From Escherichia coli (lineage in GTDB: Bacteria; Pseudomonadota; Gammaproteobacteria; Enterobacterales; Enterobacteriaceae), in the NCBI RefSeq assembly GCF_044647545.1, contig NZ_CP172818.1: DNA of 64,000 nt; one strand, written 5' to 3'. This document shows, in pieces, positions 1 to 29,727 of this stretch. The notes beneath the pieces are model-generated. The model did not search any database and was not told the DNA's origin. It saw only the letters and a program-made list of their open reading frames with translations. The first letter of the stretch is position 1, and each line of letters starts with the position of its first letter. The translations under genes were made by a program, and so were the position numbers.

Positions 1-805
<805 letters not shown>

Positions 806-2239
806 CTATTTCAAGCGATAGTAAAGCTCACGGTACGACTTCGCCGCGACCTGCCAGCTAAAATCCATTGCCATAGCCTGACGTTGCACAAACCGCCACA
901 GTGAAGGACGGGACCACAGTACAAAAGCACGTCGAATAGCCCGTAATAGCGACCAGGCATTACTATCTTCAAAGACAAACCCACTGGCGACGCCATCTGC
1001 AAGGTTCTCAAGAGAACAGTCAGAAACCGTATCAGCAAGCCCACCGGTGCGCCGCACTAACGGCAGCGTACCGTACTTCAATCCATAAAGTTGCGTTAAG
1101 CCGCACGGTTCAAAACGGCTGGGCACCAGAATGACGTCCGCGCCGCCCATAATGCGATGCGAAAATGCTTCGTGATAGCCAATCTGAACGCCCACCTGGC
1201 CGGGGTATTCCGCTGCCGCCGCAAGGAAACCTTCCTGCAGCACCGGATCGCCCGCGCCGAGTAGCGCCAGTTGCCCGCCCTGCTCCAGAAGACCCGGTAA
1301 GGCCTCCAGCACCAGGTCGAGACCTTTCTGGCTGGTCAGACGGCTCACCACTGCAAAAAGCGGCACTTTATCGTCAACCTTAAGCCCCATTGCGATTTGT
1401 AACTGGCGCTTATTTTCCGCTTTATCTTCCAACGTATCGCGGGTGTAACGCGAGGCCAACAGTAAGTCCGTCTCTGGACTCCAGATTTTCTCGTCCACGC
1501 CGTTCAGTACGCCGGAAAGACGCCCTTCACGGTGACGCTGTTGCAACAGACCTTCCATACCGTAGGCAAACTGCGGTTCGGTGATCTCGCGAGCGTAGGT
1601 TGGACTGACTGCCGTAATGTGATCGGCATAGTACAGACCGGCCTTCAGAAAAGAGATTTGTCCGTTGAATTCCAGCCCATGAATATTAAAGAATGACCAT
1701 GGCAATTGGATGTCATTCATGTGATGTGCATAAAACATGCCTTGATAGGCCAGGTTGTGCACAGTAAACACCGACTTCGCCGGACGCCCGCGCGCCGCCA
1801 GATACGCAGGCGCAAGGCCTGCATGCCAGTCGTGCGCATGCACCACATCAGGACGCCAGAATGGGTCAAGCCCACTGGCCATTTCTGCCCCAACCCACCC
1901 CAGCAGCGCAAAACGCAATACGTTGTCGGTATAGGCAAATAAGTTGGTATCGTGATACGGGCTTCCCGGACGATCATAGAGATGCGGCGCGTCAATCAGG
2001 TATATGCCAACCCCGTTGTAATGACCGAACAACAGCGTGATATGTCCGGCGAAGGTATCACGACGGGATACTACCTGCGCATCGGTCACGCCACGGCGAA
2101 TATCGGGAAATGCAGGCAACAGTACGCGAGCGTCAACGCCGTCTGCGATTTGTGCTGCGGGTAATGCCCCAATAACATCAGCCAGACCGCCGGTTTTAAG
2201 CAGCGGGAACATCTCTGAACATACATGTAAAACCTGCAT
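806..2239 (-). CDS. glgA: Glycogen synthase GlgA
   Basis: ORF track 477 aa; N-terminus [22 protein letters not shown] with KTGGL motif; length matches GlgA. Confidence 0.95.
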
Positions 2240-3534
2240 TATCGCTCCTGTTTATGCCCTAACTTCCGTAGCATTTCGCGCGTTACCAGCACGATGCCTT
2301 CTTCTGAACGATAGAAACGACGTGCATCTTCCTCTGCGTTTTCACCAATCACCATGCCTTCCGGAATAACACAAGCACGATCGATGACGCAGCGGCGCAG
2401 ACGGCACGAGCGACCTACCCATACTTCCGGTAACAATACGGCGGAATCAATGTTGCAGAATGAATTCACGCGAACGCGCGAGAACAGAACGGACTGCACC
2501 ACCACCGAACCGGAGATCACACAACCGCCGGAAACCAGTGAGTTAAGGGTCATCCCGTGGCTACCGGAGCGATCCTGCACGAATTTCGCTGGCGGTAATG
2601 ATTCATTGTAGGTGCGAATTGGCCAATTGCGATCGTACATATCCAGTTCCGGCACCACAGAGGCCAGATCGAGGTTCGCTTTCCAGTAAGCTTCCAGCGT
2701 ACCCACATCGCGCCAGTACGGCTCGGCATCCGGGTCGGATTGTACGCAAGAGAGCGGGAACGGATGCGCATAGGCCAGACCGGCTTCGGTGATCTTGGGA
2801 ATCAAATCTTTGCCAAAGTCGTGGCTGGAGTTCTCATCGCGATCGTCTTCTTCCAGCAGTTCATACAGATAGTCGGCGTCAAAGACGTAGATACCCATAC
2901 TCGCCAGAGATTTGCTCGGATCGTTCGGCATTGACGGTGGGTTAGCAGGTTTTTCAACGAATTCGATAATTTTATCGTTCTCATCAACCGCCATAACGCC
3001 AAATGCGGAGGCTTCTTCAATCGGTACTGGCATACAAGCAACGGTGCAACGTGCGCCTTTTTCGACGTGGTCGATAAGCATACGCGAGTAGTCTTGCTTG
3101 TAGATATGGTCGCCCGCCAGGATCACCACGTATTCCGCTTTATAACGGCGGATAATGTCGAGGTTTTGGGTAACTGCATCTGCGGTGCCGCGATACCAGT
3201 TTTCCCCTTTCATTCTCTGCTGTGCTGGCAGCAGATCGACAAACTCGTTCATTTCTTCATTGAAGAATGACCAGCCGCGCTGAATGTGCTGCACCAGAGT
3301 GTGGGACTGGTACTGGGTGATCACGCCCATACGACGGATCCCGGAGTTGATGCAGTTAGACAGCGCAAAGTCGATAATGCGGAACTTACCGCCGAAGTGT
3401 ACGGCCGGTTTTGCTCGCTTATTGGTTAAATCCTTCAGGCGGGTACCACGTCCTCCCGCCAGTATCAGGGCAACAGATTTCAATGGCAGCTGGCGCGCCA
3501 ACATTAAGTGATCGTTCTTCTCTAAACTAACCAT
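2239..3534 (-). CDS. glgC: Glucose-1-phosphate adenylyltransferase GlgC
   Basis: ORF track 2239..3570; start placed at internal Met of [16 protein letters not shown] giving 431 aa; GGRGTRL nucleotide-binding motif. Confidence 0.93.
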
Positions 3535-3551
3535 GACTAACTCCTTTTTTA

Positions 3552-5525
3552 TCATCTCTGGAACACACACAATCCGTGTGCAGGTCCCTGCCAGACAGCC
3601 GTAATCACTGGGTTATCCTCTCCAGCGAATGGGGGAATGGCGTGCCACTCCCCAGCAGGTAAAACAATCTCTGTTACCTCAAGCGTGGCGTTAATTGCGA
3701 TCAAAAAGCGATCCGAGAGCAGAATTTGCAGCTGTTTCGGCCCGTTTTGCCACTCATCCGTGCTTAAAGGTTGAGCATATCGATTTAGCCAACGGACATT
3801 GCCGTCGCCTTCTTCCCACCAGCGATTCTCCATCAAAGCGGGAATGCGCTTGCGCAGATGGATTAACGCGGCGGTAAATGCGGTTAAACCACTGCTTGCC
3901 TGCGACCAGTCCAACCAGGTTAATTGGTTATCCTGACAGTAGGCATTGTTATTGCCATGCTGGCTGTGACCATGTTCGTCACCGGCCAGTAACATCGGCG
4001 TACCCTGGGAGAGCAACAACGTTGTTAACAGGGCGTGAATGCTGTCGCGCCGCCGTTCAACCAGATCAAGAGTACCGCCTAACCCTTCTTTACCATGATT
4101 GTTACTGTAATTGTTGTTGGTCCCGTCGCGATTTTCTTCTCCGTTTGCTTCATTGTGTTTATGGTTGAAGCAAACGCAGTCGCGAAGCGTAAAACCGTCA
4201 TGCGCGGTGACGAGATTAATCGCGGCACTCGGCAGACGACCATTACGTTTAAAAACATCGCTGGAGGCAGCAAAACGCCCGGCAAACGCCCCCAGAGGCA
4301 AATCATAATGCAGCCAGAAACGACGGGCAGCATCGCGGAAATGATCGTTCCACTCGGCAAACAGCGGCGGGAAATTTCCCACCTGATAACCACCAGGAGC
4401 AATATCCCACGGTTCAGCAATTAACTTCACCTGTGAGAGCACGGGGCAGTTCTGGATAGCGGTAAACAACGGCGCATCCTGACGGAACTCTGGCGTACGG
4501 CCCATGACTGCCGCCAGATCAAAGCGGAAACCATCGACGTGGCAGGTTTCTACCCAATAACGCAGGCAGGCGCAGGCATAATCCACCACCGCCGGATGAC
4601 TCAAATTGAGCGTATTGCCGCAACCGGTCCAGTTGTGATAATCGCCGTCTTCTCTTATCCAATAATAGCTACGGTTGTCGATCCCACGCAGAGAGAATAA
4701 CGGGCCGTCGAGGTCCAGTTCCGCGCTATGGTTGAGCACGATATCAAGAATGACTTCGATACCCGCTTTATGCAGTGCTTTGATTGCATCGCGAAACTCA
4801 TGCAGCGCCGTTTCTGGGGAGCAGGCATACGCCGGATGCAGCGCAAACATCGCCACCGGGTTGTAACCCCAGTAGTTACTTAGCCCCATGCGTTGCAGAC
4901 GTGGTTCACTGGCAAACTGCGCCACCGGCAGCAGTTCCAGCGCGGTAATGCCCAACTGTTTCAAATAGTTGATCATCACCGGATGCCCCAGGGCTTTATA
5001 AGTGCCACGGATCTCGACCGGGATCTCCGGGTGCAGGTACGTTAATCCTTTGACATGGGCTTCATAAATGATGGTACTGCCCCACGGCGTGCGCGGCGGA
5101 GCATCATCCTCCCAGTCATAGTGATCAACCACCACTACGCATTTCGGCGCAATGGCGGCGTTGTCGCGATAGTCAGGTTCATTATGACCGGCGTGCAGCA
5201 GCGGGTTATCTTTAAACTCCCCGTCAATTTGCCGCGCGCAAGGATCAATCAACAACTTCGCCGGGTTAAAGCGATGCCCCTCGGCGGGTTGCCAGGGGCC
5301 ATGAACGCGATAACCATAACGCAAACCCGGACGCGCATCCGGCAGATAACCGTGCCAAATGTCGCCACTGTGCCCTGGCAAGTCATAGCGATGTTCCTGG
5401 CCATTGGCGTCAAAGATACACAGTTCTACCCGCTCGGCATGAGCGGAGAAAAGTGTGAAGTTGACGCCCTGACCGTCGTAATGCGCGCCGAGGGGTGCGG
5501 GTTTGCCAATGGCGAGTTGTGTCAT
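3552..5525 (-). CDS. glgX: Glycogen debranching enzyme GlgX
   Basis: ORF track 657 aa; [31 protein letters not shown]-terminus; GFRFD catalytic region of GH13. Confidence 0.95.
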
Positions 5526-7708
5526 TCTGCCTCCCGAACCAGCCAGATAGTGGCCAGCGGTGGTAGTGTCAGGCTTAGTGAATGCTGACGACCGTGGCTG
5601 GCAATCTCATCGCTGTGTACCGTGCCGCCATTGCCGGCATTACTGCCGTGATAGTGCATGGAATCGGTATTGAGGATTTCACGCCATTTGCCCGGCTGGT
5701 TAATGCCGAAGCGATAATCATGACGCGGCACCGGAGTAAAGTTACTGGCAACGATGATTTCGTTACCCTCTTTATCGCGACGCACAAAGATCAGCACCGA
5801 GCGTTCTTTGTCATCCACCACCAGCCATTCAAAGCCGTACGGGTCAAAATCCAGTTCATGCATTGCTTTATGGTGGCGGTAGGTGAGGTTCAGATCGCGC
5901 ACCAGACGCTGGACACCGTGGTGCCAGTTATCGCCGCCTTCCAACAGATGCCAGTCGAGGCTGGCGTCATGGTTCCACTCGCGGCCCTGGGCAAATTCGT
6001 TCCCCATGAACAGCAATTTCTTGCCCGGGAATGCCCACATCCAGCCGTAGTAGGCGCGCAGGTTAGCGAATTTCTGCCATGCGTCGCCCGGCATCCGATC
6101 GAGAATCGATTTTTTACCGTGGACCACTTCATCATGCGACAACGGCAGGACGAAGTTTTCAGTGTAGTTGTAGAGCATCCCGAAGGTCAGTTTATCGTGA
6201 TGATACTGACGATAAACCGGGTCGAGCTTCATGTAGTCCAGGGTGTCATGCATCCAGCCGAGGTTCCACTTGTACCAGAAGCCCAGACCGCCCATGTCCT
6301 GCGGACGAGAAACGCCAGGGAAATCGGTAGACTCCTCCGCCATTGTCACCGCACCGGAAACCTGCTCACCAAGAATACGGTTGGTATTACGCAAGAATTC
6401 AATCGCTTCAAGATTCTCGCGCCCGCCAAATTCGTTCGGGATCCACTCCCCCTCTTTACGGCTGTAGTCGCGGTAAATCATTGACGCCACCGCATCGACG
6501 CGCAGCGCATCAATACCAAAACGTTCGATCCAGTAAAGCGCGTTACCGACAAGGAAGTTACTGACTTCACGGCGACCATAGTTGTAGATCAGCGTATTCC
6601 AGTCCTGATGATAGCCTTCGCGCGGATCGCTGTGTTCATACAAGTTCGTGCCATCAAATTCGGCAAGCGCAAAGTCATCGGTCGGGAAGTGGCCTGGCAC
6701 CCAGTCGAGAATCACGTTCAGACCAGCTGCGTGTGCGGCATCAATGAAATAACGGAAGTCGTCGCGAGTACCAAAACGGCGGGTCGGTGCATACAGGCCG
6801 GTTGGCTGATAACCCCAACTGCCATCGAAGGGATGCTCGTTAATGGGCAGTAGCTCGAGATGGGTAAAGCCCATCCATTTAGCATAAGGCACCAGTTGAT
6901 CGGCCAGCTCGCGGTAGCTCAACCAGAAATTGTTGTCGGTGTGGCGACGCCAGGAGCCCAGGTGAACTTCATAAATAGAGATTGGCGCATCAAACTGATT
7001 CGCTTTTTTGCGCTCTTCAGTCTGTACAACCTTTTCCGGCAGCCCGCAAATAAGAGACGCGGTTTCCGGGCGCATTTGCGCTTCGAAGGCATAAGGGTCG
7101 GACTTCAGACGCAAGTTGCCATTGGCATCAATCATCTCGTATTTATAGAGCTGACCGTTATGCGCCCCAGGGATAAACAGTTCCCAGATGCCGCTCTCTT
7201 TACGCAGGCGCATCGGATGACGGCGACCGTCCCAGTAGTTGAATTGCCCAACCACCGAGACCCGACGGGCGTTTGGAGCCCAGACAGAAAAACGCGTACC
7301 TGTGACGCCATCCATAGTATCTGCATGCGCGCCTAAGGTTTCATACGGGCGCAGGTGAGTACCTTCAGATAATAGCCAGGCATCCATTTCCTGGATTAGC
7401 GGACCAAAACGGTAAGGATCATCAATCAGGTTTTGCTGACCATGCCAGACAACAGCCAACTGATAGCGGAAAAAATTCTTACGTCGCGGAATGACACCGC
7501 TAAAGAATCCCCGTGAGTCGAGACACTCCAGTTTTGCGAGTTTGCGCCCGGTTTTCGGTTCAATCACCCACACATCGGTAGCGTCGGGTAAAAGGGCACG
7601 GACTTCCAGTCCCGCGGTGGTTTTATGCATCCCCAGTACGGAAAAAGGATCCGCAAAATGGCCTGCAATTAGCGCGTTAATCACGTCTCTATCGATACGA
7701 TCGGACAT
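5522..7708 (-). CDS. glgB: 1,4-alpha-glucan branching enzyme GlgB
   Basis: ORF track 728 aa; [29 protein letters not shown]-terminus; 4-nt overlap with glgX start. Confidence 0.95.
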
Positions 7709-7944
7709 GCTTGTCTTCCTGTTTTATTGTGTCACCCCATCCAACTGAATTTTTGACTTCTGGTTGTGACATTTTTTTGACCTGAACGGCGCAGCACTCT
7801 GTGCATCCTCTCTGCGTCGTCCTCACTTCAGGTAAGGCTGTGAATACTCGTGTATTCCGCCACCCTTAAAGAATAGCCAATGCTCTATTTAACTCCCGGT
7901 AAATCATGAAACATCTGCGCTTACTCCTGTATTACGCACTAGCA

Positions 7945-7962
7945 GGGGCGGCATCGCGCCCC
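7945..7962 (-). terminator. GC hairpin (ggggcg-N6-cgcccc) just downstream of asd stop; possible terminator
   Basis: Perfect 6-bp inverted repeat seen in sequence; no strong U tract on the asd strand, so weak. Confidence 0.3.
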
Positions 7963-7980
7963 AGATTTAATGAATAAAGA

Positions 7981-9084
7981 TTACGCCAGTTGACGAAGCA
8001 TCCGACGTAGCGGCTCCGCGGCCCCCCACAGCAGCTGGTCGCCCACGGTAAAGGCTGACAGGAACTCCGGTCCCATATTCAGCTTACGCAGACGGCCTAC
8101 CGGCGTGGTCAGCGTGCCGGTAACGGCAGCTGGGGTTAGCTCACGCATAGTGATTTCCCGATCGTTTGGAACAACTTTCGCCCACGGATTGTGCGCAGCC
8201 AGCAGTTCTTCCACGGTCGGAATAGACACATCTTTTTTCAATTTAATAGTGAATGCCTGGCTATGGCAGCGCAATGCCCCGACACGCACACATAAACCAT
8301 CTACCGGAATTACGGAAGATGTGTTGAGGATCTTGTTGGTTTCCGCCTGCCCTTTCCACTCTTCGCGGCTCTGACCGTTATCAAGCTGTTTGTCGATCCA
8401 CGGAATCAGGCTACCCGCCAGCGGCACGCCAAAGTTATCTACCGGCAGCTCACCGCTACGGGTTAAGGTTGTGACTTTGCGTTCGATATCGAGAATAGCA
8501 GAGGACGGGGTCGCGAGTTCATCTGCCACATGGCCATACAGATGGCCCATCTGGGTTAATAACTCACGCATATGTCGCGCACCACCGCCGGAAGCGGCCT
8601 GGTAGGTTGCAACGGACACCCAATCAACAAGATCATTGGCGAATAAACCACCCAACGACATCAACATCAGGCTTACGGTACAGTTACCGCCAACAAAAGT
8701 CCTGATGCCATTATTTAATCCGTCGGTAATGACGTCCTGATTGACGGGGTCAAGAATGATGATGGCGTCATCTTTCATGCGCAGAGATGATGCTGCGTCA
8801 ATCCAGTAACCTTGCCATCCGCTTTCACGAAGCTTTGGATAGATTTCGTTGGTATAATCGCCGCCCTGACAGGTCACAATGATATCGAGGGCCTTTAGCG
8901 CCTCCAGATCAAAGGCATCCTGAAGTGTGTCAGTGGTTCCGCCAAAAGACGGCGCAGCCTGACCAAGCTGAGAAGTAGAAAAGAAGACAGGGCGAATGGC
9001 GTCGAAGTCGCGCTCTTCAACCATGCGTTGCATGAGAACGGAGCCGACCATACCGCGCCAGCCGATAAAACCAACATTTTTCAT
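7981..9084 (-). CDS. asd: Aspartate-semialdehyde dehydrogenase Asd
   Basis: ORF track 7981..9144; start placed at [16 protein letters not shown] (367 aa); C-terminus RRMLRQLA. Confidence 0.93.
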
Positions 9085-9275
9085 AAGCGTTTTTTCCTGC
9101 AAAGATGTGTGCTGTATAAATGTGCCGGTCTCCTCCTGGCACATCTTTCACCATACAAAAAGCAGCCAAAGTCGCAAGTGAAATTAATCAATGATAGCGA
9201 AGCCATCAGTAATGCGACTTATCCTGCTTTGTTAGCACGCAGAAAGTCCGCGGCAATTATCAGGGAATTTGAGTT

Positions 9276-9869
9276 ATGAATGAAATCATTTCTGCAGCAG
9301 TTTTATTGATCCTGATTATGGATCCGCTCGGAAACCTACCTATTTTCATGTCCGTACTGAAACATACTGAACCGAAAAGACGGCGGGCAATCATGGTGCG
9401 AGAGTTGCTTATTGCTCTCCTGGTGATGCTGGTGTTCCTGTTTGCGGGTGAGAAAATTCTGGCATTTCTCAGCCTGCGAGCAGAAACCGTCTCCATTTCT
9501 GGCGGCATCATTCTGTTTCTGATCGCCATTAAGATGATTTTCCCCAGCGCTTCAGGAAATAGCAGCGGGCTTCCGGCAGGTGAAGAGCCGTTTATCGTGC
9601 CGTTGGCAATTCCGTTAGTCGCCGGGCCGACTATTCTCGCCACGCTGATGTTGTTGTCTCATCAGTACCCGAATCAGATGGGACATCTGGTAATTGCTCT
9701 GCTGCTGGCCTGGGGTGGCACCTTTGTCATCCTGCTACAGTCTTCGCTATTTTTACGTCTGCTGGGCGAGAAAGGGGTGAATGCACTTGAACGCCTGATG
9801 GGATTGATTCTGGTGATGATGGCAACTCAGATGTTCCTCGACGGCATTCGAATGTGGATGAAGGGGTAA
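9276..9869 (+). CDS. yhgN: MarC-family inner membrane protein YhgN
   Basis: ORF track 197 aa, hydrophobic; MNEIISAAVLLILIMDPLGNLPIF N-terminus. Confidence 0.9.
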   Translation: MNEIISAAVLLILIMDPLGNLPIFMSVLKHTEPKRRRAIMVRELLIALLVMLVFLFAGEKILAFLSLRAETVSISGGIILFLIAIKMIFPSASGNSSGLPAGEEPFIVPLAIPLVAGPTILATLMLLSHQYPNQMGHLVIALLLAWGGTFVILLQSSLFLRLLGEKGVNALERLMGLILVMMATQMFLDGIRMWMKG

Positions 9870-9880
9870 CGTTCAATCTC

Positions 9881-10001
<121 letters not shown>

Positions 10002-10062
10002 CGGATAGTTTTTACGATAAAGTACCTGGTTTGCTTCACAACTACCGGCGCGAACAAAAAAA

Positions 10063-11403
10063 TTAACTCAACAGCTGGAACGCAATCATCCCAACGATGG
10101 CACCAACAGTGCCGAGTATGGTTTCCATCATGGTCCAGGTTTTCAGCGTTTCGGCTTCGGTCGCGCCGGTAAATTTACCGAACAACCAGAAACCGGCGTC
10201 GTTAACGTGGCTGACAACAATCGAACCACCGGCGATACAAATCGACAGCGCCGCCATTTGCGCACCGGAGTAGTTCAGTTGTTCAATAACCGGCATCACC
10301 AGTCCCACCGCCGTTAAACAGGCAACGGTGGCAGAACCCTGAATGATGCGCACTGCAGCTGCCAGCACGAAGCAGGTGATGGCAATCGGCAGGCCCATGC
10401 CGGTTAACGCTTCGCCCAGTGCCGGACCTACGCCTGAGTCAACCAGCACCTGTTTGAACACGCCGCCCGCACCAATCACCAGCAGAATGATCCCCGCCGG
10501 TTGCAGCGCGTGACCGCAAATCTCCATCACTTTGTCTTTTGGCATGCCCTGACGCATTGCCAGACCGTAAATCGCCACCAGACAAGCAACCAGAATCGCG
10601 GTAAACGGATGGCCGATAAACTCGAACCATTCGTAAGCGGTAGAGCCTTCTGGCACAAAACGCGCGGCAATGGTTTTCAGCCCCACCAGCACCAGTGGCA
10701 ACAGGATCAGCGACAGGCTGAATCCGAAGGACGGCATTTTGCCTTCGCCGAGATGTGGTTCGCTGATGTCGTCAGGAATATGCAGCTCCACGTAGCGGCT
10801 GATGAAATTACCCCACAGCGGCCCGGCAATAATCATTCCCGGAATTGCCGCACACAGGCCAATCAGGATCATCCAGCCAAAGTCGGCGTTCATCTGCGAT
10901 GCCAGCAGCATTGGCGCTGGTCCAGGCACCAGGAACGCAGCCGCTGCCGCCACGCCTGCGAATAATGGGATTACCAGCTTCACCAGGTTCGTACCGGTGT
11001 GGCGCGCCATTGAGAAAGCAACGCTAATCAGCAGAACAATCGCCACTTCAAAGAACAGCGGTAGCGCACAGACCAGCCCCGCAAGACCGATGGCATAATG
11101 CGCGCGACTGTGACCGAAGGATTTGAGCATTTTGACGGCAATCTGATCGACTGCGCCGGTTTCATGTAAGATCTTGCCAAACATGGCTCCCAGGGCGACA
11201 ACCACCGCCAGAAAGCCGAGGGTGCCTCCCATCCCTTTTTCCATCGTCGCTGCGATTTTATCGAGCGGCATACCGGAAAAAAGGCCAGCCCCCATGGACA
11301 CCACCATCAAAGCCAGGAAAGCGTGCATACGCGCCTTCATGACTAAAAACAGCAGCAGTAAAACAGACCCTACTGCTGTTAAAACAAGCGTTAATGTAGT
11401 CAC
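10063..11403 (-). CDS. gntU: Low-affinity gluconate transporter GntU
   Basis: ORF track 446 aa, polytopic membrane protein; MTTLTLVLTAVGSVLLLLFLVMKARM N-terminus. Confidence 0.93.
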   Translation of the reverse strand: MTTLTLVLTAVGSVLLLLFLVMKARMHAFLALMVVSMGAGLFSGMPLDKIAATMEKGMGGTLGFLAVVVALGAMFGKILHETGAVDQIAVKMLKSFGHSRAHYAIGLAGLVCALPLFFEVAIVLLISVAFSMARHTGTNLVKLVIPLFAGVAAAAAFLVPGPAPMLLASQMNADFGWMILIGLCAAIPGMIIAGPLWGNFISRYVELHIPDDISEPHLGEGKMPSFGFSLSLILLPLVLVGLKTIAARFVPEGSTAYEWFEFIGHPFTAILVACLVAIYGLAMRQGMPKDKVMEICGHALQPAGIILLVIGAGGVFKQVLVDSGVGPALGEALTGMGLPIAITCFVLAAAVRIIQGSATVACLTAVGLVMPVIEQLNYSGAQMAALSICIAGGSIVVSHVNDAGFWLFGKFTGATEAETLKTWTMMETILGTVGAIVGMIAFQLLS

Positions 11404-11406
11404 TAC

Positions 11407-11934
11407 TTATTTGCCTTTTTTAATAACCTCAATGGTGCTTGCCACAACACCTTCCAGCGGTTGATCGATATCCACCACCAGTACATCGGTTTCGTCCGCA
11501 CCCGGCTCCTGCAGCGTTTCAAACTGCGTCACCAACATTTGGGTTTTAAAGAAATGGCCTTTGCGCGCTTTCAGGCGGCTTTCAATCACATCAAAATCGC
11601 CTTTCAGGTAGATGAAAGAGAGATTCGGATTACCCGCGCGTAGCAAGTCGCGATAGTGTTTTTTCAGTGCAGAACAGACGATCAGCGACACTTTATTGGT
11701 GCGCTGCATAGCAAACGCGGCGTCGTTCAGCGCCTGCAACCACGGTTTGCGATCGTCGTCATTCAGCGGTTCACCAGACGCCATTTTTTCGATATTGCGC
11801 CGTGGATGGAGGAAATCGCCATCAAGAAACGCGGCATGAAGTTGATGCGCCACTTCACTGGCGACCGCAGATTTGCCGCTGCCCGATACGCCCATCAAGA
11901 CGTAAATGTGGTGATCATGGTTAGTCGTGCTCAA
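11407..11934 (-). CDS. gntK: Gluconokinase GntK (thermoresistant), likely TTG start
   Basis: ORF track 11407..11955; canonical 175-aa protein begins at (L/M)STTNHDHHIYVLMGVSGSGKSAV; Walker A GVSGSGKS. Confidence 0.88.
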   Translation of the reverse strand: MSTTNHDHHIYVLMGVSGSGKSAVASEVAHQLHAAFLDGDFLHPRRNIEKMASGEPLNDDDRKPWLQALNDAAFAMQRTNKVSLIVCSALKKHYRDLLRAGNPNLSFIYLKGDFDVIESRLKARKGHFFKTQMLVTQFETLQEPGADETDVLVVDIDQPLEGVVASTIEVIKKGK

Positions 11935-11964
11935 AGTGGTGCCCCCACAATACAAGAATTAAAA

Positions 11965-11993
11965 ATGTTACGGGTAACTGTTATCGGTAACAT
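11965..11993 (-). promoter_or_regulatory. Tandem GntR operator half-sites in gntKU promoter
   Basis: Plus strand atgttacgggtaactgttatcggtaacat, reverse complement atgttaccgataacagttacccgtaacat, matching the GntR operator consensus ATGTTACC-N-GTAACAT; about 30-60 bp upstream of gntK start. Confidence 0.65.
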
Positions 11994-12072
11994 TGTCCGG
12001 CCGGACAATATCAGAAGCAATATCCATCCGTGCCTTAAGTGTATAAGTGTGAGCTACTTCAAATTTGTGGGC

Positions 12073-13068
12073 TTAAATAGATCCGCCCGGTGACAAGGTG
12101 AAACCTAAATCTAACATTTTCGGTGTCACAGATTCGCCACGAATACGCGCCAGCAGGCGTTCAGCGCCAATACTGCCCATCCGCTCACGCGGCGTCAGTA
12201 CGCTCGCCAACCGTGGTTCCATCACCTGACCAATGTCATGACCATGGAAACCGGCAATCGCCATATCGTCAGGAACTTTTAACCCCAGACGCTGACATTC
12301 AAACGCCGCGCCGACCGCCAGATCATCATTAGTACAGAACACGCCATCCAGCTGCGGATATTCCCGCCGTGCCTGGCGAATCAGTTCAATACCGGAAGAG
12401 TAAGAAGAAGATTGCTCAACCATCACGCTATACGGCACCAGGCCTGCATCCAGCATCGCCTGTTCGTATCCCTTCTGTTTGATGATAGTACGTTCGTCGA
12501 GACGTGCGCCGAGATAGGCAATGTGGCGATGCCCGCGAGCAATAATGGCAGTGGTCATCTGGCGTGCCGCTTCAAAGTTATCAAAACCGACGGCAATATC
12601 GAGGCACGGCGACTTGCTGTCCATCAACTCCACCACCGGAATCCCCGCCACTTCAATCATCTTTAAGGTGCGTGGCGTGTGAGTACGTTCGGTGAGGATC
12701 AGGCCGTCGATATTCCATGAGAGCATGGATTCGAGGCGTTCTTGCTCCATTTCCGGTTTATAACCGTAGTGCGCCAGCATGGTTTGATAACCGTGCGCGT
12801 CGGTGACGCTTTCGATTCCGCGTAATACTTCCGCGAAAACCTGGTTGGTGAGAGAAGGTAACAGGACGCCAATCGCCCGGCTGGTGGCGTTAGAGAGGAT
12901 ATCGGGCGCGCGATTGGGAATATAACCCAGTTCATCAAGAGCGGCGGCAATCTTGCCGCGTAGAGCGACGGAAACCTGCTCCGGGTTGCGTAAAAAACGG
13001 CTGACCGTCATTTTGGTCACGCCTACACGGTCAGCCACATCCTGAAGTACGGGTCTTTTCTTTTTCAT
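12073..13068 (-). CDS. gntR: Gluconate repressor GntR (LacI family)
   Basis: ORF track 331 aa; N-terminal helix-turn-helix MKKKRPVLQDVADRVGVTKMTVSRFL. Confidence 0.93.
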   Translation of the reverse strand: MKKKRPVLQDVADRVGVTKMTVSRFLRNPEQVSVALRGKIAAALDELGYIPNRAPDILSNATSRAIGVLLPSLTNQVFAEVLRGIESVTDAHGYQTMLAHYGYKPEMEQERLESMLSWNIDGLILTERTHTPRTLKMIEVAGIPVVELMDSKSPCLDIAVGFDNFEAARQMTTAIIARGHRHIAYLGARLDERTIIKQKGYEQAMLDAGLVPYSVMVEQSSSYSSGIELIRQARREYPQLDGVFCTNDDLAVGAAFECQRLGLKVPDDMAIAGFHGHDIGQVMEPRLASVLTPRERMGSIGAERLLARIRGESVTPKMLDLGFTLSPGGSI

Positions 13069-13212
13069 CGTCCTGAAGGTACAAAAGAGATAGATTCTTT
13101 TAGTTTAACACGGACGCCTCAGAACCTTCCCGGGGAAAACAGTGCTTGTTTACAATTATTAGATATACACTAAATCAATTGCATCGCATTGTGCTAACGA
13201 CACGGCAAAACC

Positions 13213-13274
13213 CCGGTCGCGTACATCAGCACGCGACCGGAGCGAGCGAGGAAGCCTGCAAAAAGGCAGGCTTC
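13213..13274 (-). terminator. Two tandem hairpins downstream of yhhW; the distal one is followed by GGUUUUGCC on the minus strand
   Basis: Inverted repeats ccggtcgcgt/acgcgaccgg (13213-13240) and gaagcctgc/gcaggcttc (13251-13274). Confidence 0.45.
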
Positions 13275-13291
13275 AAAGATGCCGTTGAGTT

Positions 13292-13987
13292 TTAAACCGG
13301 CGGCAGATCGAACAGTAACACTTCGCTGTCGCTATCCGCATGAATGGAGATTGCCTGCTCATCCCAGATTGCCAGACCATCGCTGGTCGAGGCTTTCACG
13401 CCGTTAATGGTGACATTGCCTTTCACCACCTGGATCCAGACGCGGCGTTCAGCGGCAATCTGATGCACCGACTGCTCATCTTTCAGCAATGCCCAACGAT
13501 ACAGTTCCATATCCTGATGCACTTTCAGCGAACCATCTCGCGCATCCGGCGAGAGCACCAGCTGTTTGCCCTGTACGGCATCGAAGCGACGCTGTTCATA
13601 ACGCGGCGTAATGCCGTTTTCTTCAGGCATGATCCAGATCTGATACAGATGCAGACGCTCGGTGCTGCTTGGGTTGTACTCAGAGTGACGGATACCCGTA
13701 CCCGCACTCATAATCTGGAACTCACCCGCCGGAACCTGCTCTTTATTGCCCATGCTGTCCTGGTGCTCAACAGTACCTTCCAGCACGTAGGTCAAAATTT
13801 CCATATCTTTATGCGGGTGAGTACCGAAGCCCTGCCCTGCTTCAATCACGTCGTCGTTAATCACGCGCAGCGCGGAGAAACCCATAAAGTTCGGGTCGTA
13901 GTAGTTGGCAAAAGAGAAAGTATGCCAGGAGTCCAGCCAGCCATGATTTGCATGACCACGTTCATTTGCTTTGCGTAAGTAGATCAT
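13292..13987 (-). CDS. yhhW: Pirin-like quercetin 2,3-dioxygenase YhhW (cupin)
   Basis: ORF track 231 aa; MIYLRKANERGHANHGWLDSWHTFSF and HPHKDMEILTYVLEG cupin metal-site motif. Confidence 0.9.
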   Translation of the reverse strand: MIYLRKANERGHANHGWLDSWHTFSFANYYDPNFMGFSALRVINDDVIEAGQGFGTHPHKDMEILTYVLEGTVEHQDSMGNKEQVPAGEFQIMSAGTGIRHSEYNPSSTERLHLYQIWIMPEENGITPRYEQRRFDAVQGKQLVLSPDARDGSLKVHQDMELYRWALLKDEQSVHQIAAERRVWIQVVKGNVTINGVKASTSDGLAIWDEQAISIHADSDSEVLLFDLPPV

Positions 13988-14109
13988 TTGTATTCGCCCC
14001 CTGAATGTTTTCGATGGGCTTAGTGTGGACCCGATCTGCCTGGGATGATAGAGGGTGAAAATTGACCCCTATGTTCAAAAAAATTGAACTATTCGAGGGG
14101 CCATCAAAC

Positions 14110-15147
14110 TTACTTCGCGAGAGTCACTGTGGAGGGAGAGGCTTGCTCAAAACCGCGTTCAAGGATTTCCAAATTGGTAAGAACTTCAGATTCCTTGACG
14201 TAATTTGGCGCACCGTTGGTGATGGTTTGATACAACGCATCATAAACGCGCCCGTAATCGCCCATCTCCGGCTTCATCTCTTCTCTGACCGTCACCCCCT
14301 CGTCATTGACATACTCCAGCACACCGACCGAATCATCCGCTGCGAATCCCGGTTCGCCCGGCATAATATTAGCCTTGAGGCTGGTTTCCTGCTGGTCGAT
14401 ACCGTATTTAATAAACGAACCTTTCTTACCGTGAACGATAAATTTCGGATAATCGATTTTCACCAGATGGCTGGTTTTGACGATGGCTTTCAGGTCGCCA
14501 TAAAACAGCTGCGCTTCAAAGGTGTCGTCAGGATTGGCTTTATTACGCAGGCTGCGGATGTCATAAGCGACGTGATCCGGGCGACCGAACAGAGAAATAA
14601 TCTGGTCCATCGTATGCACACCAAGGCCATAGAACGCGCCATCCTGCGGCAGCCCAGGTTTGGTTTCTGCCACCGGGCGGTAATAGTCAAAATGGCTTTC
14701 CACTTCAACAATCTCTCCCAGCTTGCCGCTTTCAATCGCTTTTTTCGCCGTCAGAAAACAGGAATCAAAGCGACGATTCTGATACGGCGTGACGGTCAGC
14801 CCTTTACTTTTCGCCAGCGCAAAAAGTTCTTTCGCTTGCGCAAGCGTCGGAGTGAATGGTTTTTCGACCAGCACATTTTTCCCGGCTTCCAGCGCGCGCT
14901 TCGCGTACTCGAAGTGGCTGTCCGCATGGGTGCAGACAACAACCAGCTTAACATCGGGATCGTTTAGCACTTCGTCGAGATCGCTGGTGAAATGGATATG
15001 AGAGTAAATGGGAGCCTGTTCTTCCGGCTTCGCATGGCGACGAAAAATATGCGCGACATGCCAGCTATCCTTGCGGTTAAGTACATACGGCAGATGGTAA
15101 CGGGTGGTGCTTTTGCCGAAGCCAATAAAGGCGCAGTTGATGACCAT
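14110..15147 (-). CDS. yhhX: Gfo/Idh/MocA-family NAD(P)-dependent oxidoreductase YhhX
   Basis: ORF track 345 aa; N-terminal Rossmann segment MVINCAFIGFGKSTTRYHLPYV. Confidence 0.88.
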   Translation of the reverse strand: MVINCAFIGFGKSTTRYHLPYVLNRKDSWHVAHIFRRHAKPEEQAPIYSHIHFTSDLDEVLNDPDVKLVVVCTHADSHFEYAKRALEAGKNVLVEKPFTPTLAQAKELFALAKSKGLTVTPYQNRRFDSCFLTAKKAIESGKLGEIVEVESHFDYYRPVAETKPGLPQDGAFYGLGVHTMDQIISLFGRPDHVAYDIRSLRNKANPDDTFEAQLFYGDLKAIVKTSHLVKIDYPKFIVHGKKGSFIKYGIDQQETSLKANIMPGEPGFAADDSVGVLEYVNDEGVTVREEMKPEMGDYGRVYDALYQTITNGAPNYVKESEVLTNLEILERGFEQASPSTVTLAK

Positions 15148-15269
15148 GATTTCGTCCTTTTTAAGGGGGTTATTTACACCTTAGCGCAAAGCGGACGTGG
15201 TTCCTACTGGAGTGCGCATAACGAACACAAGCACTTCCCGTGGATAATTTGAAAACGAAAGATCAAAAA

Positions 15270-15359
15270 AAAAGCCAGCACCCGGCTGGCTAAGTAATAC
15301 TGGAAGCAATGTGAGCAATGTCGTGCTTTCAGGTTCTCCGCGAGGGTCTTCCTGATCGC
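15270..15359 (-). ncRNA. ryhB: Small regulatory RNA RyhB (iron-sparing sRNA) with intrinsic terminator
   Basis: Minus strand reads GCGATCAGGAAGACCCTCGCGGAGAACCTGAAAGCACGACATTGCTCACATTGCTTCCAGTATTACTTAGCCAGCCGGGTGCTGGC followed by T9; matches RyhB as I recall it; located between yhhX and yhhY as in K-12. Confidence 0.9.
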
Positions 15360-15362
15360 AAG

Positions 15363-15384
15363 ACAATAATAATCATTCTCATTC
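15363..15384 (-). promoter_or_regulatory. Fur box overlapping the ryhB promoter
   Basis: aataataatcattctcatt immediately upstream of the RyhB 5-prime end resembles the Fur consensus GATAATGATAATCATTATC. Confidence 0.6.
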
Positions 15385-15480
15385 GCACTTGTCCAACACT
15401 TTTTGCAAAAAAATGCATTTGACTCGCATTTGAAAGTCAATGATGTTGAAAGGGACATTTACCCCAAAGAGGACAAAGGA

Positions 15481-16305
15481 ATGAGTGAGATAGTAATACG
15501 CCACGCAGAAACACGCGATTACGAGGCCATCAGGCAGATTCACGCCCAGCCGGAGGTGTATTACAACACGCTACAGGTGCCTCATCCTTCAGAACAAATG
15601 TGGCTGGAACGACTCACCGCTCGCCCTGGCATCAAGCAGTTAGTCGCCTGTATTGATGGAATCGTCGTAGGCCATCTCACCATTGACGTGCAACAACGCC
15701 CACGCCGCAGTCATGTTGCCGACTTTGGTATCTGTGTCGACTCCCGTTGGAAGAACCGCGGCGTCGCCAGCGCCCTGATGCGAGAGATGATTGAAATGTG
15801 CGACAACTGGTTGCGGGTAGATCGTATTGAGCTAACGGTGTTCGTCGATAACGCGCCAGCAATTAAGGTCTATAAAAAATTTGGCTTTGAGATTGAAGGG
15901 ACTGGCAAGAAGTACGCGCTGCGTAAGGTGAATCGGGAGATCATGGGGTGCGCAACTTACGATGTGTGGGTAGGTGCTGCGGCTCCTCCGGCCCCGCCCG
16001 CTACGGCGGGCTACGGCGCGCGGCCGCCGCCGCAAACGGCGCCGCACGAATCGGGCCGCGGGGCCGCCTGCCCGCTCCGCGCCCCGGCGGTCCCGCGCAC
16101 GGGCAGGGCACCGCGCGGGGCCAGCGCGGGCGCGCAGCGGTTACGCGACCCCGGGGGGTGCGCGTTCGGTGACGCACGGGCGACGCGGGGGCAGGCCGCG
16201 CACCCGACGGGGGGGACGGGGCGGCCGCGGCCCGCCGGGGCCCAGCGCGACGGGGGGCCCGACGGGCCGGCGGGGCGAGCCCTCACCTACCGGGAGAGGG
16301 CTTAA
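15481..16305 (+). CDS. yhhY: GNAT N-acetyltransferase YhhY, reading frame extended into a GC-rich block because no stop occurs at the expected 162-aa position
   Basis: ORF track 15403..16305; MSEIVIRHAETRDYEAIRQIHAQPEV start at 15481; after about 162 residues the frame continues as low-complexity Ala/Pro/Gly/Arg-rich sequence to 16305. Confidence 0.7.
   Translation: MSEIVIRHAETRDYEAIRQIHAQPEVYYNTLQVPHPSEQMWLERLTARPGIKQLVACIDGIVVGHLTIDVQQRPRRSHVADFGICVDSRWKNRGVASALMREMIEMCDNWLRVDRIELTVFVDNAPAIKVYKKFGFEIEGTGKKYALRKVNREIMGCATYDVWVGAAAPPAPPATAGYGARPPPQTAPHESGRGAACPLRAPAVPRTGRAPRGASAGAQRLRDPGGCAFGDARATRGQAAHPTGGTGRPRPAGAQRDGGPDGPAGRALTYRERA
15967..16276. other. About 310 bp block of extreme GC content (by eye well above 80 percent) between yhhY and ggt; open in several frames, no recognisable gene
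   Basis: Seen directly: runs such as ggccccgcccgctacggcgggctacggcgcgcggccgccgccg; contrasts sharply with the roughly 50 percent GC flanks; right edge abuts a hairpin gccctc-N11-gagggc and the ggt stop. Confidence 0.85.
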
Positions 16306-16309
16306 GATA

Positions 16310-18055
16310 TTAATACCCCGCCGTTAAATCATCCACCGAGCGCGAGTCGGATGCACCGTACAACTCACCATCCGACCCAACCATAATGCTTTGCGTACTG
16401 CCCATCGCCTCTTTCAGCGCCACTTTCTGACCTTTTGCTTCCAGCAGCTTGAGCGTATCCGGGCTAAACCCTTTTTCGACACGCAGCTCGTCCGGCAACC
16501 ACTGATGGTGGAAACGTGGCGCATTGGTCGCTTCGGCGACATTCATACCACAATCGATGCTATTCACCACCATTTGCAGCACGGTAGTGATGATCCAGCT
16601 CCCGCCAGGGCTACCGGTAACCAGCCAGGTTTTACCGTCTTTCACCACAATGGTGGGTGACATCGACGACAGCGGGCGTTTATTCGGCCCGACCGCGTTG
16701 GCGTCACCACCCACCAGCCCGTAAACGTTCGGTACGCCCGGTTTGGCGGAGAAATCATCCATCTGGTTATTGAGCAAAATACCGCTCTCGCCCGCGACAA
16801 TGCCCGTCCCGAAGGTGGTGTTCAGCGTATAGGTCACCGCCACCGCGTTACCGTCTTTATCCACCACTGAGTAATGGGTAGTTTGATTACTCTCATAAGG
16901 CGCAAGCTTGCCGGGGCGAATTTCGCTGGATGGCTTCGCTTTATTGATATCGATTTGATCGGCAATAGATTTGGCATAGGCTTTATTGGTCAGCGCCTGC
17001 CACGGTACTTTGACAAAATCCGGATCGCCAAGATATTCCGAGCGGTCGGCGTAGGCGTATTTCTCAGCTTCTGCCATGATTTGCATCGCGTCGGCACTGC
17101 CAAAGCCGTACTTCTTCATATCGAAGTTTTCCAGGATATTGAGGATCTGCACGATATGAATCCCACCGGAAGATGGCGGTGGCATCGAGTAAACCTGATA
17201 CCCGCGATATTCGCCGCTAATCGGTGTACGTTCGACCGCTTTATACGCCGCTAAATCTTCTTTAGTGATCAAGCCACCGTTTTTCTGCATCTCCTGGGCA
17301 ATCTGTTCCGCTATCGTGCCTTTGTAGAATTCGTCCGGGCCGTTTTCGGCAATCATCTCCAGGCTCTTTGCCAGGTTCGCCTGCACCAGCTTGTCACCCT
17401 TTTTCAGCGGCGCGCCCTCTTTCCAGAAGATAGCCTTGCTGTTTTCGTGATTCGGCAATACTTCGCTACCGTAGGTTTTGAGATCGTCAGCCAACGCGTC
17501 GTTAACGATAAAACCATCGCGTGCCAGTTTAAACGCCGGTTGCACCACTTTGTTCAACGGCATGGTGCCGTACTTCTCCAACGCCAGCGAGAAACCTGCT
17601 ACCGTACCGGGCGTACCAGAAGCCAGATGCGAAGTGAGTGATTTTTTGCTGTCCGGGTTACCCTGATCATCAAGGAACATATCGCGGGTCGCTTTGGCGG
17701 GTGCCATTTCGCGGAAATCGATAGCCGTGGTATTGCCATTTTTCGAGCGGATTAACATAAAACCACCGCCGCCCAGATTCCCCGCCTGCGGATGCGTTAC
17801 CGCCAGCGCGTAGCCCACTGCCACGGCAGCATCAACGGCATTCCCGCCCTCCTTGAGGATATCCACCCCCACCTGAGTGGCAGTAGCATCTACAGACGCC
17901 ACCATCCCCTGTTTCGCGCGTACCGGATGAAAGACATCTTCCTCCACGCCGTAAGAAACAGGAGACGGCGCAGGTGGCGCGGCTACCGTACTAAAACAAC
18001 TTCCTGTGAACAGAGCAGCAATGGCCACCCGGCGTAAAAACGTCGGTTTTATCAT
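16310..18055 (-). CDS. ggt: Gamma-glutamyltranspeptidase Ggt
   Basis: ORF track 16310..18082; start placed at MIKPTFLRRVAIAAL signal peptide (580 aa); Thr nucleophile region TTHYSVVD; C-terminus DDLTAGY. Confidence 0.93.
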   Translation of the reverse strand: MIKPTFLRRVAIAALFTGSCFSTVAAPPAPSPVSYGVEEDVFHPVRAKQGMVASVDATATQVGVDILKEGGNAVDAAVAVGYALAVTHPQAGNLGGGGFMLIRSKNGNTTAIDFREMAPAKATRDMFLDDQGNPDSKKSLTSHLASGTPGTVAGFSLALEKYGTMPLNKVVQPAFKLARDGFIVNDALADDLKTYGSEVLPNHENSKAIFWKEGAPLKKGDKLVQANLAKSLEMIAENGPDEFYKGTIAEQIAQEMQKNGGLITKEDLAAYKAVERTPISGEYRGYQVYSMPPPSSGGIHIVQILNILENFDMKKYGFGSADAMQIMAEAEKYAYADRSEYLGDPDFVKVPWQALTNKAYAKSIADQIDINKAKPSSEIRPGKLAPYESNQTTHYSVVDKDGNAVAVTYTLNTTFGTGIVAGESGILLNNQMDDFSAKPGVPNVYGLVGGDANAVGPNKRPLSSMSPTIVVKDGKTWLVTGSPGGSWIITTVLQMVVNSIDCGMNVAEATNAPRFHHQWLPDELRVEKGFSPDTLKLLEAKGQKVALKEAMGSTQSIMVGSDGELYGASDSRSVDDLTAGY

Positions 18056-23693: not shown

Positions 23694-23794
23694 GGCGGTG
23701 ACGGCGCGGGCGAGGGAAAATGGGAGATGGGGCACGGATAAGCGGGAAAAATAGAAGGTCTGAATCAAACTCTACAGATTGCTCATCGTTTCAT

Positions 23795-23894
<100 letters not shown>

Positions 23895-23954
23895 ATTTTA
23901 CATTTGTAACCTGTCTCAAAGGAGTCTTTTGACTCCTTATCAATCAACGTGTTA

Positions 23955-29598: not shown

Positions 29599-29627
29599 TC
29601 GTCAAGTTTGATTTCACAAGTGATATT

Positions 29628-29727
<100 letters not shown>

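Follow-up and report, generated by a model that had tools for sequence, protein, structure and literature searches.

The window analyzed here is a 64,000-nt stretch of Escherichia coli DNA in which yhhY lies on the plus strand between yhhX and ggt, both on the minus strand. An earlier note on this DNA had reported that yhhY has no stop codon at its usual end and is fused in frame to a G+C-rich block. The frame does run on to 16305: it is uninterrupted on the plus strand from the ATG at 15481 to a TAA at 16303–16305 (274 codons), passes through a conserved spacer hairpin, and ends 4 nt short of the stop codon of ggt on the opposite strand. Codon 163 (15967–15969) is TGG, and the block that follows yhhY has a G+C content of 87% from about 15976 to 16277. 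These parts of the earlier observation stood, but the native match over about 162 residues did not. The features of the locus are listed in Table 1.

Table 1. Features of the yhhY-ggt locus in the window
Feature	Position	Strand	Description
Fused open reading frame	15481..16305	+	148 native and 126 non-native residues, then TAA
Native yhhY part (GNAT N-acetyltransferase)	15481..15926	+	Codons 1–148 plus 2 nt
Block leader	15927..15975	+	49 nt, 55% G+C, encodes KVNREIMGCATYDVWV
Junction micro-feature GGTGAAT	15927..15933	+	Fits the reference if one T is deleted
Block core	15976..16277	+	302 nt, 87% G+C (G 46%, C 41%)
Native yhhY-ggt spacer hairpin	16278..16302	.	Arms 16278–16287 and 16293–16302
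ggt (gamma-glutamyltransferase)	16310..18055	-	Convergent with yhhY, frame intact
ggt 3′ tract	16322..16597	-	12 substitutions private to the window
Left junction 31-mer			GCGCTGCGTAAGGTGAATCGGGAGATCATGG
Right junction 31-mer			GGCGGGGCGAGCCCTCACCTACC

The earlier note had matched the frame to YhhY for about 162 residues, up to a C terminus reading ...REIMGCATYDV. The length it gave is correct (the reference protein WP_001296483.1 has 162 aa), but the C-terminal sequence it gave is wrong: the reference ends ...KKYALRNGEYVDAYYMARVK, as does every full-length homolog inspected. The alignment with reference YhhY that had been proposed as a check gave identity through residue 148 only (...KKYALR), which is reached at nucleotide 15926. 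Residues 149–162 of the window protein are KVNREIMGCATYDV and are encoded by foreign DNA, and evidence that they are native was looked for and not found. The 14 residues lost from the native C terminus are NGEYVDAYYMARVK, and what had been taken for the native end is the leader-encoded KVNREIMGCATYDVWV.

The native part of yhhY is 100% identical to ST648-type E. coli. Its upstream region, ribosome binding site, and start codon are unchanged, and there is no mismatch to FDAARGOS_497 over 10061–15926. When two reference genomes were aligned, 63–71 native bases were found to be replaced by 344–351 foreign nt, running from 15927 or 15934 to 16277, and the lost bases comprise the last 14 codons, the stop codon, and most of the yhhY-ggt spacer. 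At the left junction the reference reads CGTAATGGTGAAT and the window reads CGTAA-GGTGAAT; either GGTGAAT marks the actual left breakpoint, which would then lie at 15933/15934 and include a 1-nt deletion, or these 7 nt match by chance. On the right, identity to the reference resumes exactly at the spacer hairpin, which lacks a T-run and for that reason was not called a canonical terminator by a simple scan. Judged by these alignments, the 3′ end of yhhY was overwritten by a foreign block, the outcome that the earlier note had thought more likely. The native stop codon is missing along with the 14 codons before it; it was deleted, not changed to TGG. The codon found where a stop had been expected is indeed TGG, but it belongs to the foreign DNA, and mutation of the stop codon was therefore rejected.

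Within the block, the leader is similar neither to the native sequence that it replaced nor to anything else searched, and, save for the 7-nt GGTGAAT, it was rejected as a degraded copy of the replaced 71 nt. The core has a C-rich left half and a G-rich right half, and its base entropy drops along its length, from 1.9 bits at the left to 1.2 bits at the right. It has no codon periodicity, with G+C fractions of 0.86, 0.84, and 0.90 at codon positions 1, 2, and 3. No other stretch of this kind occurs within the 64 kb. We also considered whether the block derives from local E. coli DNA by hypermutation through transitions (A>G, T>C) and rejected this, since a comparison in the purine/pyrimidine alphabet, which took in the window and the reference loci, gave nothing better than shuffles.

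The G+C-rich block is without stops in the yhhY frame because stop codons are A/T-rich. When the block was shuffled 20,000 times, the yhhY frame stayed open in 39% of the shuffles, and on average 2.6 of the six frames were open. Thus, a stop-free frame through the block is expected by chance (P about 0.39). Since the first stop to follow is the TAA immediately after the native spacer hairpin, the 274-codon frame arose by accident. Its 126 non-native residues are 66% Ala, Gly, Pro, and Arg.

A search of 5.8 billion protein clusters found no relative of the block-encoded tail at E ≤ 1, Pfam found no domain in it, and in a model of the fused protein the pLDDT is below 50 from residue 140 on. The earlier note had named long reference YhhY proteins with a similar tail as evidence against itself; they were looked for among 577 relatives, and none carries a tail of any kind. 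These relatives align to the first ~148 residues only, with a maximum query coverage of about 54–60%. The YhhY family is typically 160–167 aa long, against 274 codons here, and the stop codon at the family-conserved position is missing in the window. A conserved long variant of YhhY was rejected, since the tail is in no relative and the longer relatives are N-terminal start-site variants.

The fused protein belongs to the GNAT family by Pfam, with a match to Acetyltransf_1 (PF00583) at residues 33–136 (E = 2.7e-17) and with Acetyltransf_3 and Acetyltransf_4 covering residues 4–146. The complete GNAT fold with its terminal β-hairpin and the motif R-N-G-x-x-x-D-A-x-x-M-A-R-x-K is not present, as the sequence diverges after R148. 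Seven of the 14 lost residues do not vary among 24 homologs (N149, G150, D154, M158, A159, R160, and K162), and all seven are missing here. In the AF2 model of native YhhY, strand 151–161 pairs with strand 137–148, and in the window it is replaced by sequence with a pLDDT below 50. The lost residues are predicted from this model to form the last β-strand of the GNAT fold. The closest solved relative, the acetyltransferase PA1377 of Pseudomonas aeruginosa (PDB 2vi7, E = 7e-33), is of the same GNAT subfamily. Its alignment reaches YhhY residue 161 and includes the conserved C-terminal motif R(N/D)G.(Y/F)VD.Y.MAR, whereas the window protein has lost this motif. If expressed from the intact yhhY promoter and ribosome binding site, the window gene would yield a GNAT domain without its terminal β-strand and the seven invariant residues, followed by a 126-residue Ala/Gly/Pro/Arg-rich addition without predicted structure.

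It is hardly credible that such a disordered Pro/Ala/Arg/Gly-rich domain, once expressed, gives YhhY a new property. The open frame and the intact native promoter, ribosome binding site, and start codon agree with a functional protein, and nothing else does. Chance accounts for the open frame (P = 0.39), codon periodicity is absent, no homolog bears the tail, and the last strand and the seven invariant residues are lost; moreover, the fusion occurs only once and carries no sign of selection. None of the marks of an evolved C-terminal fusion (conservation, a known domain, a coding signature) was found, and the literature on yhhY consists of strain and gene lists that say nothing about a tail. 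The fusion is not an evolved protein, and the fused product is a disrupted gene rather than an extended enzyme. Hence, of the two readings in the earlier note, the overwritten 3′ end is supported, but a YhhY that keeps its native 162 residues and gains a C-terminal extension is not, because the GNAT body is cut at residue 148, its last β-strand is gone, and the tail has no relatives.

Compared with native E. coli YhhY in its yhhX-yhhY-ggt setting, the window has the same residues 1–148, promoter region, start codon, and neighbors, but 126 unrelated residues in place of residues 149–162 and the stop codon. Public data contain other natural disruptions of the yhhY 3′ end. One of them has a frameshifted end (P0002), two have alternative ends after residue ~129 (P0028 and P0029), and one is fused to an unrelated frame (P0041). 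Similar to the window, these genes have aberrant C termini through read-through into whatever comes next. However, their tails have no sequence in common with the window tail and are not Ala/Gly/Pro/Arg-rich, and G+C-rich orphan DNA is found in none of them. The K-12-type island, in which yrhB adjoins ggt, occupies the same variable yhhY-ggt site as the block. The locus query matched a median of two places per genome in the E. coli genome search, and yrhB is annotated in many genomes. In the island, the 40 nt inspected beside ggt, which show only the end of yrhB, are ordinary in composition, while the block is 0.35 kb long, non-coding-like, 87% G+C, and unique. On the K-12 map, the island also holds yhhZ and yrhA.

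None of the 5,426 complete E. coli genomes searched contains the block, and no second copy was found in these genomes or in the window. Rfam gave only sub-threshold matches (E 3.9 and 5.5, the best below the gathering score), plasmids gave nothing significant (one 49-nt match, E = 0.3), and phages gave no match, although the low-complexity masking of BLAST may have hidden some of the block query in these searches. Two exact 22-mers of the core were absent from 100,044 GTDB species-representative genomes, and exact core 22-mers had no match in JGI metagenome contigs, an exact core 20-mer none in viral contigs (IMG/VR), and exact leader 24-mers none in viral and metagenome contigs; these large scans demand exact 20–24-mers and hold no eukaryotic genomes, and a diverged natural source could escape them. 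An exact look-up of the fused protein in public assemblies returned no entry. With no significant match in any of these collections, an origin from known RNAs, plasmids, phages, or E. coli repeats was rejected. A coding fragment of a high-G+C organism was rejected as well, since the block has no periodicity and its best-phased frame, the one frame of six searched at the protein level (the other five phase worse), has no protein match.

The many imperfect inverted repeats of the block and its very low folding energy might suggest that it works as a non-coding element, for example a regulatory insert, mobile element, or structured RNA, whose overlap with the yhhY frame is incidental. However, its folding is not significantly better than that of dinucleotide shuffles (z = −1.4 on the plus strand and −2.3 on the minus strand, where the folded stretch includes the native hairpin), and no Rfam match exceeds the threshold. 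As a mobile element or E. coli repeat (IS, MITE, REP/BIME, ERIC), the block has no convincing terminal repeats, no target duplication, and no second copy, and it replaces 63–71 nt rather than being a clean insertion. Such an element is very improbable here.

Beyond the hairpin, the 3′ part of ggt also differs from the reference. All 12 private substitutions fall within 320 nt right of the block and are followed by 15.7 kb without a mismatch. Six of them turn an ST648 base back to the species-common base and are all synonymous. The other six are novel, and on the sense strand of ggt every one of them is a C>T or an A>G change, a one-strand bias of about P 0.03. In the protein, the novel changes cause R>W, Y>C, and two P>S replacements, each at a position where the GGT of H. 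pylori has the identical residue, and the ggt product thus carries four private amino-acid changes, located in the small subunit. Of these, R>W and Y>C would be expected to reduce GGT activity. This exact GGT protein is not on record. One explanation is that the region from 15927 to ~16600, the block together with a divergent ggt allele, was imported by recombination from an unsampled Escherichia lineage, with the block being a resident element of the donor yhhY-ggt spacer. In line with this, the substitutions form one short tract adjoining the block, are mostly transitions and synonymous in 7 of the 12 cases, and at half of the sites the base is a frequent one among other E. coli lineages. 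However, none of the 5,426 genomes is closer than 97.2% to the ggt tract, and ST648-only and non-ST648 bases are interleaved at 3-nt spacing with no contiguous tract of a known allele. For these reasons, a known allele or contiguous recombination tract was rejected. Furthermore, four amino-acid changes at residues conserved between E. coli and H. pylori are unlike a functional donor allele, and the two block 22-mers are absent from the GTDB species representatives. Import is improbable.

Outside three loci, the window matches ST648-type E. coli at 100%, with no mismatches. The second locus (9870–10062), ~6 kb away from the block, contains another orphan patch with a degenerate poly-A tract (9877–10003). 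Similar to the block, this patch is private to the window and low in complexity, lies in a 100%-identical backbone, and begins abruptly at a gene end; it then collapses progressively from left to right along an entropy gradient, and a noisy copy of the native downstream spacer follows before exact identity returns. Unlike the block, it is up to 95% A, lies in an intergenic spacer, and causes no ORF fusion. The third locus is an Rhs segment (the RhsB element). It was rejected as a third noisy patch, since its private changes have a natural codon-position pattern, and it looks like natural divergence. Thus, the differences from the ST648 background are not all artefacts.

Two kinds of origin were weighed for the block. 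It might be a real scar private to this strain, left when a double-strand break near the 3′ end of yhhY underwent illegitimate repair. In such an event 63–71 nt would be lost and ~350 nt of filler captured from an unsampled G+C-rich source, for instance host eukaryotic DNA or an unsequenced organism, or made by template-free synthesis, while a local deamination-type mutation shower hit the resected single strand on the ggt side. This would have turned yhhY into a pseudogene whose ORF is extended by accident, and would have damaged ggt. The clean junctions in a perfect backbone fit this course, as do the 1-nt deletion and 7-nt match at the left junction. The six novel substitutions cluster within 320 nt of the block and are all C>T/A>G on the minus strand, which is the one that 5′ resection would leave single to the right of the break (the strand is inferred). 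Moreover, the spacer site is known to be variable, and yhhY is sporadically disrupted in nature. However, break repair does not explain the six consensus reversions among kept ST648-only bases or the second orphan low-complexity patch of like architecture (9870–10062), and the left side of the break has no mutations. In addition, the source of the filler was found in no collection searched, and the block and the resulting proteins were found in no public assembly searched. We consider a scar of this kind possible but doubtful. That it all happened in a living ST648-type E. coli, with ~350 nt of extremely G+C-rich DNA, of non-prokaryotic or unsequenced origin or synthesized without a template, ligated into the yhhY break and the poly-A patch as a second product of that activity, is unlikely. 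Such an event would have deaminated the resected ggt side in a strand-specific shower and added 126 de novo residues to the product of an expressed gene.

We think it probable that the block is a sequence artefact rather than biology. With only slightly more than even confidence, we hold that it is an erroneous, chimeric, or in-silico-generated sequence in this record and not inherited biology. We favor this, on indirect grounds, because the block is an orphan in every collection searched and sits within a backbone 100% identical to published genomes, because the 320-nt noisy ggt copy mixes ST648-only, species-consensus, and novel damaging bases within a few nucleotides, and because the second locus repeats the pattern of drift, collapse, and noisy recovery. 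Long-read gap-filling noise is an unlikely source, since the differences are substitutions with no indels. The perfect flanks and clean junctions are unlike ordinary long-read noise or a contig-end chimera, and the one-strand C>T/A>G set would fit deamination of a resected single strand at a real double-strand break better than random error. Also against an artefact, the yhhY-ggt spacer is truly variable in E. coli, other natural disruptions of the yhhY 3′ end exist, and the RhsB locus looks natural.

As a protein finding, the extended YhhY carries small weight; it is a broken gene whose frame runs on for want of stops. It is also a warning, since two or more low-complexity patches private to the window, together with a damaged ggt, interrupt the otherwise perfect ST648-type backbone, and annotations built on these stretches (a fusion protein, a disordered tail, a G+C-rich island) should be treated with caution. 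If the block is real, it would be a case of the capture or synthesis of orphan filler DNA at an E. coli chromosomal break, with an adjoining strand-biased mutation cluster and an instant new coding sequence, and would be relevant to research on break repair and de novo gene birth.

The open frame of yhhY that the earlier note had traced to 16305 is present, running from the ATG at 15481 to the TAA at 16303-16305 (274 codons). Its anatomy was misdescribed, and the observation is therefore only partly confirmed. Exact nucleotide identity with reference yhhY ends at 15926; when a 1-nt deletion is allowed (the T of CGTAATGG), seven further bases, GGTGAAT, match up to 15933. On the right, exact identity is back at 16278, the start of a conserved spacer hairpin (AGCCCTCACC/GGAGAGGGCT). 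Between these points 344-351 nt of foreign DNA stand in place of 63-71 native nt, which comprised the final 14 codons with their stop and the greater part of the 60-nt spacer. The 3-prime end of yhhY was thus overwritten by the G+C-rich block, which is the reading that the earlier note had preferred. Its match to YhhY over about 162 residues was too long: the window is identical to the reference protein (WP_001296483.1, 162 aa) only through R148, and KVNREIMGCATYDV, taken for the native end, is already coded by foreign DNA. The reference C-terminus is ...KKYALRNGEYVDAYYMARVK, as in every full-length relative inspected. Codon 163 (15967-15969) is indeed TGG, and it is no mutated stop, the native stop having been deleted.

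Features of the window, with positions and strand
Feature	Position	Strand	Description
Second orphan patch	9870-10062		Between yhgN and gntU; private; degenerate poly-A tract at 9877-10003
Block leader			49 nt; 55% G+C
Block core			302 nt; 87% G+C (G 46%, C 41%, A 8%, T 5%)
ggt substitution tract	16322-16597	-	12 substitutions within 320 nt, after 44 exact bases right of the block
Novel ggt substitutions	16345, 16370, 16375, 16394, 16551, 16597	-
Inverted-repeat pair	23790-23896 / 29625-29731		About 107 nt, about 87% identity; also at matching places in reference genomes, near the ugpB-livF and livK-panM spacers
RhsB element	50214-56662		rhsB-yhhH-yhhI, K-12-type arrangement, in place of ST648-type hicAB

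The longer protein considered in the earlier note is not a real feature. The non-native tail has 126 residues, of which Ala, Gly, Pro and Arg make up 66%; a search of 5.8 billion protein clusters gave it no relative at E<=1, it contains no Pfam domain, and its predicted structure has pLDDT <50 over the full length. The earlier note had also named reference YhhY proteins with a similar tail as grounds for refutation, and none was found: the whole 274-aa query has 577 relatives, none of which aligns beyond the first ~148 residues, or 54-60% of the query. The family is typically 160-167 aa long, and its longer members are N-terminal start-site variants, all ending in ...NGEYVDAYYMARVK. In the yhhY frame, G+C in the block is 0.86, 0.84 and 0.90 at codon positions 1, 2 and 3, so the strong periodicity that marks genuine coding DNA of high G+C is missing. 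Moreover, this frame was open in 39% of 20,000 shuffles of the block, with a mean of 2.6 of the six frames open. The fusion is long because G+C-rich DNA lacks stop codons; it is an accident of such DNA and no evolved extension. A functional neo-protein is accordingly a weakly supported reading.

The block itself has no source in the prokaryotic, plasmid, phage, metagenome and viral data searched. None of 5,426 complete E. coli genomes carries it, the only match being to the native spacer and ggt sequence that makes up the final 33 bases of the query. There was no significant match among PLSDB plasmids (one of 49 nt, E = 0.3) and none among INPHARED phages, and exact 20-24-mers of leader and core had zero occurrences in 100,044 prokaryotic species genomes, JGI metagenomes and IMG/VR. 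Import from an unsampled lineage is a doubtful explanation. No terminal repeats or target duplication were found at the block, and the window has no second stretch of its kind. A functional non-coding element is similarly doubtful, as the best Rfam hit had E = 3.9 and folding was no better than that of shuffled sequence (z = -1.4 and -2.3). A transition-hypermutated version of local sequence was rejected, the purine/pyrimidine-alphabet test being no better than shuffles, and comparison ruled out a degraded copy of the replaced native sequence.

What YhhY lost is well conserved. Across 24 homologs, with identities as low as 65%, N149, G150, D154, M158, A159, R160 and K162 never vary, and the alignment with PA1377 (2vi7), the closest solved relative, reaches YhhY residue 161 via the same C-terminal motif. 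In the AlphaFold model native YhhY ends in a beta-hairpin (strands 137-148 and 151-161); judged by this model, the window's YhhY keeps the first strand and loses the second. Since neither the upstream region nor the start codon has changed, the fused ORF would probably be transcribed and translated. The predicted product, a GNAT fold cut short and followed by a structureless tail, is likely to be inactive or unstable. Sequence and synteny identify the gene as yhhY, and it lacks the C-terminal motif, last strand and length of full-length family members. The literature on yhhY holds gene lists only. A few rare public E. coli YhhY variants (P0002, P0028, P0029, P0041) have a frameshifted end, or unrelated sequence read through after residue ~129. 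They are the closest analogues, likewise reading through into the following sequence, and show that 3-prime disruption of yhhY is recurrent in nature; unlike the window's yhhY, none of them has orphan G+C-rich DNA.

Beside the block, the 3-prime end of ggt is also altered. The best E. coli genome over the tract is the ST648 allele itself, at 97.2% identity, so the 12 changes are private to the window. Set against eight diverse alleles of ggt, six of these changes turn an ST648 base into the species-common base, all synonymously, while the other six are absent from every allele. All four amino-acid changes are among these novel six (R>W in GSPGGSRIITTVLQ, Y>C in IDYG, and P>S twice), and since each altered residue is identical in H. 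pylori GGT, ggt is probably impaired. Neither this GGT nor the fused YhhY is on record as an exact protein in public assemblies. Changed and unchanged sites are interleaved within a few nucleotides (16517 retains the T found only in ST648, 16520 is altered), which rules out contiguous recombination from a known allele.

Read on the minus strand, the sense strand of ggt, each of the six novel substitutions is C>T or A>G (P ~ 0.03 for strand bias among transitions), a pattern compatible with deamination of single-stranded DNA next to a break. This is the best support for the main rival account, a real private repair scar, as resection of a break would leave the ggt sense strand unpaired on its right side. 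Furthermore, yrhB rather than yhhY adjoins the ggt 3-prime end in K-12-type genomes, and the spacer differs from that at 16278-16310 (four loci from K-12-type, B and other E. coli were compared), so the yhhY-ggt junction is a naturally variable site; sporadic yhhY disruption in nature points the same way. A scar does not account for the consensus reversions in ggt or for the poly-A patch, and we regard it as possible but rather unlikely.

The window is a segment of E. coli chromosome whose gene order (glgA ... asd ... gntRKU, yhhW, yhhX (-), yhhY (+), ggt (-), yhhA, ugp, liv, rpoH, ftsYEX ...) is that of strain LR-28, with 98-99% identity, and ST648-type genomes such as FDAARGOS_497 are nearly identical, with zero mismatches outside three loci. 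Identity to the ST648-type reference is 100% over 1-3049, and there are zero differences over 2849-9869, BLAST's one mismatch, at 9870, being the first base of the poly-A patch. No mismatch occurs in 10063-15926, in the 15.7 kb beyond the ggt tract, or throughout 16598-50213 and 56663-64000, where only alignment-edge gaps (50214 and 56656-56662) appear, and these belong to the RhsB element.

The RhsB element looks natural, and would be ordinary accessory variation. It differs by 3.8% from each allele compared, and the best match among 5,426 genomes reaches only 96-97% identity; its private substitutions number 163, versus 18-51 in three natural alleles. In rhsB the private changes fall 61, 17 and 14 times at codon positions 3, 1 and 2 (58 synonymous versus 34 nonsynonymous), a pattern close to that of the K-12 allele's own changes. 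ST648 sequence flanks it at 100% identity, and donor SNPs are absent there. rhsB forms two ORFs (50279-51427 and 51506-54514) around a +1 insertion at 51423 and a -1 deletion at 51487; 64 nt separate the two, which compensate each other, yet a stop codon lies in the short out-of-frame stretch between.

The poly-A patch resembles the block. In ST648-type genomes yhgN and gntU are separated by a 3.5-kb recQ/dprA island, in 3,519 others by a short spacer; neither is present in the window, which diverges from 9870 on. Base entropy, 1.9 bits at first, drops to 0.3 bits (A makes up 95% of 9950-9989), and an island-less spacer copy with indels and a degraded hairpin follows at ~83% identity, none of the 3,519 genomes exceeding 83.6%. 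Exact identity is back at the gntU stop, and the flanking genes are 100% ST648. In the block, entropy likewise drops from left to right (1.9 to 1.2 bits), followed by noisy recovery.

We lean towards a sequence-level artefact, with erroneous, chimeric or computationally generated sequence in the record, because the window has two low-complexity patches, both private and orphan and opposite in composition, because drift, collapse and noisy recovery run in one direction at both, because the backbone is otherwise perfect, because the recovery tract mixes strain-specific, species-consensus and novel damaging bases, and because everything involved is absent from public data. An artefact leaves the strand bias of the six novel ggt substitutions unexplained. 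Should the block be real, it would be of moderate interest: orphan filler DNA, accompanied by a strand-biased cluster of mutations, would have extended an ORF in one step.
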